A program made the translations under genes and the position numbers. A DNA stretch of 64,000 bases from a virus (Duplodnaviria; Caudoviricetes), in the IMG/VR virus record IMGVR_UViG_3300007214_000006; one strand, 5' to 3'. Below, in pieces: positions 31,966 through 35,448 of this stretch. The notes under the pieces were generated by a model, which was not told the DNA's origin, ran no database searches, and was given only the letters and a program-made list of their open reading frames with translations. Numbering within the stretch: the stretch's first letter is position 1; every line of letters starts with the position of its first letter.

Positions 31966-34900
31966 ATGAATGAAACAAAACAGTATGCTATTGTAGTTAA
32001 AAATTATACAGACTTAGATTCTTTATATTTAGATATGGAAAATGACGGTTGCGGAATAAATGATTGTTGTCCTCATAGGAGTGTTAATTGTTGTGAAAGA
32101 AAACCATCCAGCAGAGTTACTTATTATGAATTAACACATTCAGAAGCAGAAATTTTAAAAAATGATCCAAGAATAGAATCGATAGAATTAGGTATCCAAG
32201 AGCAAAAAGATATCAAAATTGTTTTGTCAAATAATCAAACAGAATGTCCAGATGGATTATATCCATCAAATTGGTATTGCTGCCCAAGTGGTGGCGCCGC
32301 ATCAGAACTTCAATATTGCGGAATTACCGGACTGAATTATATTCCTCCACCATCATCTTATATTCAGTCTAATGCTGTATGTTCCAAAGAATCAAAGTAT
32401 ACATCTAGTTCTCATCGAAGTAGTAAAAATTGGGGATTAGCATATTGTTCTTATACTGGCATTTTACCAAATTGGAGCGATATTGGATATGTGGAAAATA
32501 TTCCAAGTGGGAAAGTTACTAATCCAGTCGGATATACTTGGGGTAGCGAAGTAGAAATTCCATTTTATATACCATTACAAACCGGAATAAGCCCAGATCT
32601 AGTATTTGATATCAATTTTAATTCTAATGCTCTGGGACAGAATGTTGACATAGTAATAATAGATGGTCCTGTTTATACTGGTCATCCAGAATTTGCAGTA
32701 AATTCGGATGGTACTGGAGGATCTAGATTTATACCGTACAATTGGTTTCAGCACGATCCAGAAGTAAGGGGATATTACAATCCTTCACTCTATATATATA
32801 AAATCGGTGCCAACGAACAAGGCATAGATCACGGCACCCACGTGGCGAGTACAGCTGCTGGAAACACACAAGGTTGGGCCAAAAAAGCTAATATATACAA
32901 TATTAATATATTTGATGGTCAAATTAGTCCTTATCTTTGTTTTGATTATGTAAAAGCCTTTCATAGAAGTAAACAAGGTAGTAGGCCAACAATAGTCAAC
33001 TGTTCTTGGAAATTTTTTGGAGAAGTTGCCAATGCTATTGGGGCAATACACACTTATCCTAGCGGAGAACCTCTTCCTTCCGGATACGTCTGCCACTATC
33101 CAAAATGCGACTTCCCACCTCCAGCACCATATTACGGTGAAATAAAAAGTATAGTTTATCAAAACATCGAACATAGTGGAAGATTCATATTTGACCATAT
33201 ACAAAATAAATGCGAACCACCAAAATGGGATAATGGAGATCCTGTATTTCCATCTGGTTATTGTTGTGATATGCATCCGAATCTCTGGACACCAGAAGTA
33301 GACACAAACTGCTTATTTAAGGATACCCCATATTGCGTGTGCTTAAAGACACCGTCCCCGATAGTATTCGAAAATGAATTAAGAATTAGATCACTATATT
33401 ATGATCCTAATAGTCATAGCAGAGATGATATTCTTGGATCGGATTTTACCAATGGGACTATAAGTTTTAATGATGTTGGATTTAATTTTAGGAGAATGTA
33501 CGTCGCCTGCTCAGACAAACCTATTGATCCTACAGATATATGGTTTGACGGCCCAGCGTATGCTCAGTATGCATTTTATGATGATGTCGTATTAGATCAA
33601 ATTAATGCTGACATCAACGATCTTGTTGATGAGGGAGTAACAGTAATTTGTGCTGCCGCCAATGACAATAGATATTTAGCAGCATCTGGGGATATCAATT
33701 ATAATAATAAAATTATCCGATATGATGGTAAAGAACATTACTATATGAGAGGGGGCACACCATTAACGCCTAAAACGATTGTTGTTGGAGCATTATCAAA
33801 TGAAAATTTTTCGTCATCAATAGATCCAATTCGTAAACCATCTATTGCTAATTTTTCTAATAAAGGACCTGGAGTAGATATATGGGCACCAGGAACAGAC
33901 ATACTAGGTGCTGTATCTAGTAACAGTAGAAATGCTTTTAATGATAGTAGAGATCTAACCGGAAATTCTTTTCTCAACTATTTAAGCGGAACAAGCATGG
34001 CTTCTCCTCAAGTAGCTGGGGTTTTAGCGTGCTTATCATCTATCAGGTCGATAGATTCATCAAACGCAAAAGAAGTACTAACTTCGTATGCTAAATCAAA
34101 TAGTATTTATCATGGCTACGAAACATACACACCAGCACCAACGGGATATGGTCCATATTTTAGTCTGATATTAAATCCATTAAATAGTGGATTGGTCTTA
34201 CAAAATCCGTACGCTACTGCGACAATAAAAAAAGATGCCTCAGTGTATTTTGATGTTTCAACAGGTATTATGGAGCTTGATCCTGGTGATCACATTCTAC
34301 GATCATTTAGTATTACATATGCAGATATTGTAAGTAATGTTACTTATAATACACCTGGCCCATTTATTTGCAATTATGGATGTGAAACTGGCTTTCCACA
34401 ACCACACCCAGCTGTATCGACAGCAACAGAAAAAAGATTATTTCCTGCTGGAGCATGGATGGTGTCACAAGAATGGAAATCAAGAATAGCAGGTGTCGTA
34501 GGATTCTCTCCAACTCTTGCTACATCAGGAAATAATAGCGCATCTACTAATGGTTGGATCGACAAGCGATGGAATTTTGGTGTTGTAATACCTCCAAATT
34601 CTCTTAGCGTTAGCGAAGCTCAAACAAGATTTGTAAGCCATAGCATACAAGCTTCAGTTGATTTACCGGATTTTGGATATGGAGCACCAGGAAAAGGAGT
34701 ATTTTCCTATAGTACTCCTGATGGACTAGTATTATACGGTCGAGTTTTTGTATATGATTCTTCCATCCCCACGCCCACCCCAACACAAACACAAACTCCT
34801 ACTCCAACGCCTACCCGAAATACGCCGACACCAACGCCTACTAAGCCATTGAAAATTACTATAATAAAATCTAGTGGCGATCCTATTACTATATCTTGTG

Positions 34901-35448
34901 GCCCCGACACATACATCTTGGATGCTGCCGAACAGAATAATATTTCTCTGCCTTATGTTTGTAGAGCGGGAACTTGTGGCACTTGTATTTCTACTTTAGC
35001 TAGTGGAATAATAGATCAAAGCGATCAAAGTTATTTGGATTCTGACCAAGTATCAGAAGGATGTATTTTGAGTTGTGTTTCTGTGCCTTTGAGTGATACA
35101 ATTATATATGTTCCAGGTTCATGTTCTATACATGCTCCTACCGCCACTCCGACTCCTACCCAGACTCCAACAAAAAGTGTTACTCCCACTAAAACTCCAA
35201 CACCAACTCCTACTATTACACCAAGCCAAACTCGTCGGTTAAGAGCGTCTTTTACTGATGTAATTCAAGAAGTTAGATTACCTAACCAAATAGATAATAC
35301 AAAAACAAAAAATGGTTCTGTTGTTGTTTCATGTTCTAGAACGGGCAAATATTTTACACTAGATACTGCCGTTAACAAGACAAATGTGGATGATGTTGCT
35401 AATCTTTATAAAGATAGATTTGACGATCCTGATTACTATGGATACTAA
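31966..35448 (+). CDS. subtilisin-like S8 protease with C-terminal extra domains including a 2Fe-2S ferredoxin (ORF open from 31939)
   Basis: VDIVIIDG (Asp), [11 protein letters not shown] (His), AAAN, [12 protein letters not shown] (Ser); ferredoxin [20 protein letters not shown]..VLSC-type motif between TP tracts. Confidence 0.85.
   Translation: [1160 protein letters not shown]

Follow-up and report, generated by a model that had tools for sequence, protein, structure and literature searches.

The 64,000-nucleotide stretch of IMG/VR virus record IMGVR_UViG_3300007214_000006 (Duplodnaviria; Caudoviricetes), termed here the window, encodes a large protein in which a plant-type [2Fe-2S] ferredoxin domain (Fer2) lies between two Thr/Pro-rich (TP) linkers downstream of an S8-family subtilase (Table 1). 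A single uninterrupted open reading frame (ORF; 31939-35448) holds both domains, in the order S8 domain, mid domain, TP linker, Fer2, TP linker and C-terminal module. The database start codon of this S8-Fer2 gene, ATG 31966, directly follows the stop codon (31963) of an upstream ORF of 856 amino acids (aa); an alternative start at ATG 31939 gives a protein of 1169 aa, and all residue numbers used here count from 31939. The original prediction, made from the letters of the window, had described an intact ferredoxin in frame with the protease and bracketed by TP tracts. The ORF, the Pfam matches and the two linkers bear this out, and the S8-TP-Fer2-TP architecture is almost certainly as described. 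The best explanation for the data presented below is that Fer2 is a PetF-derived cassette residing in the TP linker tracts of modular proteins encoded in a fibre/appendage gene cluster.

In sequence and predicted fold, the domain is a canonical plant-type ferredoxin. Translation of 34849-35112 gives exactly the peptide quoted in the original prediction, and the four cluster cysteines were located at precisely the predicted codons: C1008, C1013, C1016 and C1046 are encoded at 34960, 34975, 34984 and 35074, with the spacing C-x4-C-x2-C-x29-C. Pfam Fer2 (PF00111) matches aa 978-1050 over profile positions 3-76 of 77 (8.6e-17; 61.3 bits versus a cut-off of 21). Aligned with 43 other plant-type ferredoxin domains (44 in total), the window domain agrees with every one of the eight invariant columns; of the 15 nearly invariant columns it agrees with 14, the exception being S40, which is replaced by V. 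Among solved structures, the domain is closest in sequence to ferredoxins from red algae, cyanobacteria and chloroplasts (E down to 1.4e-27), and the sequence matches in the PDB include the ferredoxin domains of pectocins M1 and M2 (E 2.5e-18 and 3e-15, respectively). A single-sequence AlphaFold2 run on aa 940-1169 was unusable (predicted local distance difference test score, pLDDT, 37.5) and was replaced by a fold of the domain based on a multiple sequence alignment (pLDDT 90.4). In Foldseek, the latter model matches solved plant-type and cyanobacterial ferredoxins, including 3p63, 1off, 1a70 and the P-SSM2 phage ferredoxin 6vjv, with root-mean-square deviations of 0.7-0.9 Å over 88 residues and a template-modelling score of 0.86. 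The complete ligand motif has no second copy in the annotated ORFs of the window; the looser pattern C-x4-C-x2-C has two further matches in the window, both in antisense frames, and at the DNA level, a degenerate version of the cluster-loop motif is matched once versus none expected.

As read from its sequence, the protease part of the gene encodes a catalytically complete S8 subtilase. Pfam Peptidase_S8 matches it with 6.9e-21 (75.2 bits versus a cut-off of 21.8), and D242, H298, N575 and S686, which stand in subtilase order, are invariant in six S8 orthologs. The matches of this part in the PDB are proteinase K-like and subtilisin-like enzymes, and PHROGs assigns the whole protein to a protease family and a phage ferredoxin family. 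The N-terminal ~80 aa are conserved across orthologs and are unrecognised by Pfam; a check of aa 1-240 for an I9-type propeptide returned no Pfam match at E <= 1. The mid domain (aa 741-940) likewise has no match in Pfam and none in the ESM Atlas. Five orthologs of the S8 body share 39-43% identity over 97-99% of aa 1-760, and from about aa 745 on the window protein and these orthologs diverge. Their C-termini consist of an FGE-sulfatase domain in P0170 and P0171, of TP tracts with or without a short unassigned domain in P0172 and P0174, and of a short unassigned tail in P0173. By this comparison, the protease body serves as a chassis for a variable C-terminal arm. Two Cys-rich insertions of the window protein, at 32236-32400 (aa ~100-155) and ~33350-33440 (aa ~470-500), are absent from all five orthologs.

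A fusion of this kind could result from an assembly chimera, in which a phage gene and a piece of petF from a cyanobacterium or cyanophage were fused via low-complexity TP repeats. Such repeats are difficult to assemble, and one short contig from a reservoir metagenome (run X1) joins 34802 to 35187, thereby omitting 384 nt that correspond to the whole cassette, with only 20 nt on its shorter side. However, the identical S8-Fer2 protein is present on four contigs, the longest of 222 kb; among them, a 175.8-kb JGI contig (Ga0076948_1001958) carries it with the same neighbours. Moreover, the reservoir metagenome, a 2025 run from another study, contains a ~94% identical variant whose contigs tile the gene (32126-35797). 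One contig piece (35015-35201) leads from Fer2 into the downstream linker, and another (34646-34863) covers part of the mid domain, the upstream linker and the initial 15-18 nt of Fer2. In the variant Fer2, five synonymous and three conservative changes (D981N, V1007G and I1055V) are found and the cysteines are unchanged, and in the upstream linker the changes are mostly at the protein level. GC content at third codon positions is 0.20 in the Fer2 segment versus 0.17-0.24 in the remaining gene, which argues against both a recent graft and a chimera with high-GC cyanobacterial DNA. Two further genes with the same cassette, each a complete ORF, also speak against misassembly, which has a vanishingly small probability and is excluded for practical purposes. 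The original prediction had called for both junctions to be confirmed with reads: both are supported, by contigs rather than raw reads, and the upstream one is bridged thinly. For the joint of 34802 to 35187, an allele lacking the cassette and a false join caused by the repeats are both conceivable; as one side spans only 20 nt and both sides are TP repeats, the joint was not accepted as a real allele.

The two further genes place the cassette beside other partner domains. A search with the C-terminal part of the window protein among 5.8 billion protein clusters recovered a single further long protein with the domain, P0004 (665 aa), a complete gene on a 2.8-kb contig in which Fer2 has a TP linker on either side and a BNR/Sortilin-like repeat domain behind it. 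Searching the same clusters with P0004 recovered P0289 (723 aa), in which Fer2, flanked on both sides by TP linkers, follows an FGE-sulfatase domain and precedes a C-terminal domain. Fer2 of either protein is 56% identical to that of the window. All three cassettes share an upstream TPT-x-NTP, the four ligands, an extra Cys in G-C-(I/M)-L and a V-P-G-x-C end, which stands where free ferredoxins have an acidic tail; the non-ligand residues C987, C1042 and C1062 are kept in each of them. In a tree of 150 rows, which took in only two of the three cassettes, those of the window and P0004, the two are sisters (support 100/99).

The contig carrying P0289 (L173; 33.6% GC) is syntenic with positions 19.4-37.4 kb of the window (Table 1). 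P0289 aligns end to end with the product of window ORF 21561-23849, which has a plain TP tract, i.e., an 'empty site', where P0289 has TP-Fer2-TP. In sequence terms, the gene of the cluster that holds the cassette thus differs between related phages, its site being a TP linker in every case, and the cassette is very probably mobile. The TP-coding DNA flanking the window cassette contains imperfect direct repeats (25-49 nt) between the upstream and downstream linkers, through which recombination could plausibly add or remove the cassette; it would thus move between genes by recombination in repetitive TP-coding DNA. The BNR-like domain of P0004 was also considered as a relative of the BNR protein of the window, and the similarity was not significant.

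The fusion has few relatives in sequence collections. The original prediction had not recognised it from phages, and in 50,697 phage records Fer2 is always found, among the rows shown, under a stand-alone ferredoxin or petF annotation. The combination of S8 and Fer2 (PF00082 and PF00111), for which that prediction had proposed a search, returned only the window's own protein among the listed matches from the 5.8 billion protein clusters. Megablast of the S8-Fer2 gene against the 50,697 phage records gave no match, and neither the whole protein nor the domain had relatives when scanned against IMG/VR; an IMG/VR scan with a profile of the three cassettes gave 13 ferredoxins, all stand-alone. In all 80 metagenome loci with the closest ferredoxins, Fer2 ends the open frame (~49 residues past the ligand motif) and is internal in none; two of the metagenome loci, L027 and L046, have long open frames upstream of Fer2. 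HMMER against 1.84 billion representatives revealed no further TP-flanked cassette in the best 150 and also missed P0004 and P0289, which means that this library is incomplete for the group. Scans of GTDB genomes with specific patterns found nothing, and those with general patterns found almost entirely cyanobacterial PetF of 47-60% identity, with no clear donor.

Some ferredoxins seen in these collections stand apart from the cassette. The petF genes of L128 and L150, which are contigs of metagenome-assembled genomes (MAGs) labelled Tabrizicola and Rhizobium, are of the picocyanobacterial type and are identical or near-identical to Synechococcus/Cyanobium rows of the tree; these two contigs are probably mis-binned. 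The IMG/VR contigs L175 and L176, labelled as GVMAG giant-virus MAGs, carry stand-alone plant-type ferredoxins, and P0021-P0024 in the representative library are tandem plant-type ferredoxins of two or three domains, unrelated to the phage cassette.

Conservation within the cassettes is concentrated at positions conserved across the family. The three cassettes are invariant at 19 of the 23 columns conserved family-wide versus 26 of the 74 other columns (Fisher p = 8e-5), although the terminal branches of the cassettes are as long as 1.4-1.8 substitutions per site. A cellular protein of 512 aa, P0143, has a Fer2-like domain without three of the four ligands, indicating that the cysteines are not retained in every Fer2-like domain. 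On this sequence evidence, the cassette probably binds a [2Fe-2S] cluster. The ligand cysteines would be held by selection, and the cluster would be loaded in the cytoplasm before lysis, as the carriers have no signal peptide and are presumably released or assembled at lysis.

Cyanophage PetF is a stand-alone auxiliary gene, as the original prediction had correctly stated (279 cyanophage records in the collection of 50,697 phage records), and the cassette might act as a metabolic ferredoxin of the same kind, carrying electrons in the infected cell while attached to its carrier or after being cut from the linkers, e.g., by the S8 protease. Plant-type ferredoxins in phages are otherwise known as this cyanophage auxiliary gene, and the cassette shares with the P-SSM2 ferredoxin (6vjv) the Pfam family, the four intact ligands and the fold, its identity to cyanophage ferredoxins being 41-52%. 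In the tree, the cassette pair falls on the side holding the phage PetF rows: it forms a long branch within a set of 61 rows, to which the five cyanophage PetF rows of the tree also belong, and lies outside the core cyanobacterial clade (98/87; a caveat of long-branch placement applies). Several features, however, are at odds with a role in electron transfer. Cyanophage PetF is a free protein of 95-100 aa, whereas the cassette is an internal domain of proteins of 665-1160 aa, and two of the three carriers contain no protease that could release it. Furthermore, no ferredoxin-dependent enzyme is found among the window ORFs scanned, and the phage is not demonstrably a cyanophage; its genome, with a DnaE-type polymerase, is not that of a T4-like cyanophage.

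The surface of the cassette also differs from that of PetF. Rapid transfer of electrons from Anabaena ferredoxin to ferredoxin-NADP+ reductase (FNR) depends on S47 and E94. In Anabaena numbering, S47 is G and F65 is Y in the cassettes, and E94 is S in the window and D in P0004. After the last strand, V-P replaces T-H, and the acidic C-terminal tail is lost, the V-P-G-x-C end leading into the linker. The net charge is -6 in the window cassette and -8 in P0004, versus -11.8 +/- 2.9 in 42 other ferredoxins, so that about half of the usual negative charge is left. The Anabaena mutant structures 1qog and 1j7b are among the Foldseek matches of the window domain. When compared with the functional class of PetF, i.e., a free acidic protein of ~97 aa with the FNR-contact residues S47, F65 and E94 and an acidic tail, the window domain falls outside. 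The replacement of S47 and E94 together with the reduced charge suggests that the cassette would no longer be tuned for FNR-type electron transfer or for photosynthetic partners, and a tethered or released metabolic ferredoxin is accordingly judged unlikely.

The partner domains bear on a second proposal. The original prediction had considered a redox switch for the protease, and the presence of Fer2 and S8 in one polypeptide speaks for a regulatory role in cis, sensing redox state or iron. This proposal is weakened by the presence of the same cassette in P0289 and P0004, which contain no protease, and by the closest S8 orthologs, which work without it. In addition, two flexible linkers and a domain of 200 aa are located between Fer2 and the catalytic domain. 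A switch of this kind is therefore very improbable. As the three partner domains are unrelated, the role of the cassette should not depend on the protease, and its function is likely to be autonomous.

An autonomous role need not involve a ligand. The ferredoxin beta-grasp might be a compact and stable spacer in the TP stalk, with or without the cluster; the cysteines would then be retained since the cluster stabilises the fold. The mid-linker position in all three proteins, the window ortholog of P0289, which functions with a plain TP tract, and the loss of the typical acidic surface and FNR-contact residues are consistent with such a structural bead. On the other hand, the full cluster loop and the 19 family-wide conserved positions are kept in three lineages, the shared derived residues suggest a specific new surface rather than drift, and retention in three gene contexts argues for a benefit of the cassette's own. 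A structural bead is plausible, and is given a slightly better chance than the metabolic role, while still being on the unlikely side.

We now turn to a cassette exposed on the phage particle. A collagen-like tail-fibre gene lies 300 nt downstream of the S8-Fer2 gene, marking the cluster as fibre/appendage related, and the cluster is kept in L173. The C-terminal module of the S8-Fer2 protein is similar to the product of the intervening ORF 35499-35738 (BLASTP E 3e-5). The conserved body with variable C-terminal modules, together with the collagen-like fibre cluster, resembles the module swapping of phage tail fibres and receptor-binding proteins; what is exchanged here, unlike in the usual cases, is a metalloprotein domain that derives from metabolism and resides within low-complexity TP linkers, and its association with virions is putative. 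Subtilisin-like virion proteins of cyanomyoviruses (S-H38 QPB07966.1 and S-SCSM1 gp144), whose genes are located among baseplate and fibre genes, are 31-41% identical to the S8 domain of the window. One such homolog, from a phage with a measured virion proteome, bears a virion-protein annotation, and the virion proteins of S-SCSM1 were identified by mass spectrometry (PMC9602691). None of the cyanomyovirus proteins has Fer2, and the window protein differs from them by its extra Cys-rich insertions and its C-terminal half. The fibre-gene cluster, the swapped C-termini of the orthologs and the annotation of the cyanomyovirus homologs are indirect pointers to display on the virion, for which the chances are about even, and to the use as iron bait or receptor decoy that the original prediction had put forward.

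Display would open a further possibility, which is modelled on known uses of ferredoxin outside the cell. FusA of Pectobacterium imports plant ferredoxin, and pectocins M1 and M2 use a ferredoxin domain for the same entry (PMC5095587, PMC11452297, PMC6042079); import systems related to Fus are widespread (PMC6793856). In the likeliest mechanism, which is speculative, the carriers would be attached to the virion, anchored via their C-terminal modules beside the collagen-like fibre, so that the ferredoxin bead in a probably O-glycosylated TP stalk would form an exposed ligand. By mimicking free ferredoxin, the bead might engage a ferredoxin-binding surface receptor of the host, by analogy with the pectocin domain and FusA, and the S8, lectin-like or propeller heads might act on the cell envelope. 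That the cassette serves as a receptor ligand at all is doubtful. A specific form of this idea, in which the phage displays a holo-[2Fe-2S] ferredoxin on its appendages, mimicking, e.g., cyanobacterial ferredoxin, and docks to a Fus-like TonB-dependent receptor of an iron-hungry host, is improbable, more so than either the structural or the metabolic role. For the entire chain, from a mobile cluster-binding cassette on virion-surface proteins to a speculative function in ferredoxin mimicry, the balance is slightly on the negative side.

Several points weigh against this chain. Placement of the carriers on the virion relies on gene context and on the annotation of distant S8 homologs, and cluster binding on sequence only. 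Fer2 is located mid-stalk in all carriers and never at the distal tip, which is unusual for a receptor-binding domain. Estimates of selection are thin, the known material being three cassette proteins and one strain variant. Host inference gave no candidate, nor hence a cognate receptor for the cassette: in isolated phages, the relatives of the window's DnaE and DnaB are only distant and come from phages of unrelated hosts, and an FGE protein of 996 aa and the 856-aa neighbour have no match in the phage collection. Also, the S8 ortholog P0173 (L084:10001-12460) is located in a replication module, between the dNMP (deoxynucleoside monophosphate) kinase gene and the nuclease/DnaE genes. This suggests that the position of the S8 gene is not fixed, and proximity to fibre genes is thus weaker evidence.

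The likeness to pectocins concerns a proposed working principle and not family membership. In both cases, a ferredoxin domain is linker-fused to an unrelated effector domain, working outside the cell in the pectocins, which are the sole known case of a ferredoxin domain used as a receptor-binding module. Unlike pectocins, the S8-Fer2 protein has no colicin-M-like lethal domain (Pfam detects S8 and Fer2 only), its ferredoxin is internal rather than N-terminal, and the carrier is a phage protein. No account of a ferredoxin domain within a structural-type phage protein came up in a search of the literature, and no such annotated record is present among the rows shown from the 50,697 phage records. 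The parts, i.e., cyanophage PetF, S8 virion proteins, module swapping and ferredoxin-domain bacteriocins, are known; the combination and the behaviour of the cassette are new.

An auxiliary metabolic gene fold, with its ligands kept, would in at least three genes have become a portable module of large phage proteins that are probably exposed on the surface, providing a clear natural case of an auxiliary metabolic gene becoming a structural or interaction module, with the DNA of Thr/Pro linkers as the landing pad at which domains are shuffled. If the cassettes are cluster-loaded on virions, they would offer a testable handle on phages that carry iron and exploit iron-uptake receptors. The use of iron and iron receptors by phages, termed the 'Ferrojan horse', still has the status of a hypothesis (bioRxiv 10.1101/674382, PMC11705849). 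Should docking of a displayed holo-ferredoxin prove true, this would be the first molecularly defined example, arising from a mobile cassette that hops between genes of a fibre cluster via Thr/Pro linkers.

Table 1. Features of the S8-Fer2 gene and its surroundings in the window, and corresponding genes on contig L173
Feature	Position	Strand	Remarks
S8-Fer2 gene	31966..35448	+	1160 aa from ATG 31966 (database version)
Conserved N-terminal domain in the position of a subtilase propeptide	31966..32208	+	aa ~10-90; kept in 5/5 orthologs
S8 catalytic domain with large insertions	32626..34158	+	aa ~230-740; Pfam Peptidase_S8
S8 catalytic residues	D242 32662-32664; H298 32830-32832; N575 33661-33663; S686 33994-33996		N575 is the oxyanion residue
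Mid domain	34159..34758	+	aa 741-940; fold unassigned; not common to S8 orthologs
Upstream Thr/Pro linker	34759..34845	+	aa 941-969; ends in TPT-x-NTP
Plant-type [2Fe-2S] ferredoxin domain	34846..35130	+	aa 970-1064
Downstream Thr/Pro linker	35131..35232	+	aa 1065-1098
C-terminal module	35233..35448	+	~70 aa; paralog of the next small gene (BLASTP)
Stand-alone paralog of the C-terminal module	35499..35738	+	79 aa; directly upstream of the collagen-like fibre gene
Collagen-like tail-fibre gene	35745..37403	+	Pfam Collagen 2e-66; PHROG tail-fibre families down to 2e-103
FGE-sulfatase-domain protein	21561..23849	+	762 aa; plain TP tract ~22476-22885
L173 812-aa gene			corresponds to window ORF 19897-21549
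L173 P0289 gene	L173:2963-5134		corresponds to window ORF 21561-23849
L173 gene after P0289			corresponds to window ORF 23855-26845
L173 g8663	L173:8663-8899		78 aa; precedes the collagen-like fibre gene of L173; corresponds to the C-terminal module of the S8-Fer2 protein, BLASTP E 1.2e-5
L173 g8903 (last gene)			corresponds to the window collagen-like fibre gene

The carriers are best explained as belonging to a lineage of uncultured low-GC freshwater tailed phages, the sole environmental label obtained being 'reservoir metagenome'. The window has a GC content of about 31%, encodes glycosyltransferases, ribonucleotide reductase, DnaB and a DnaE-type polymerase, and contains no tRNA; the S8 domain (31-41% identity) and the ferredoxin are the only cyanophage affinities of the genome. 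The contig carrying P0173 (L084; JGI Ga0076948_1002752) comes from the same JGI sample as Ga0076948_1001958 and belongs to a related phage with the same replication module, which comprises PhoH, RecA, DnaB, primase, dNMP kinase, a PD-(D/E)XK nuclease and a DnaE split into two halves that flank an exonuclease. The last ~60 aa of the S8-Fer2 protein, together with the 79-aa paralog and the 78-aa paralog of L173, may represent a docking or assembly module. The collagen-like fibre is 552 aa in the window and 622 aa on the JGI contig with the identical S8-Fer2 protein (L001:6780-8648), indicating that the length of the collagen repeats varies between assemblies or strains.

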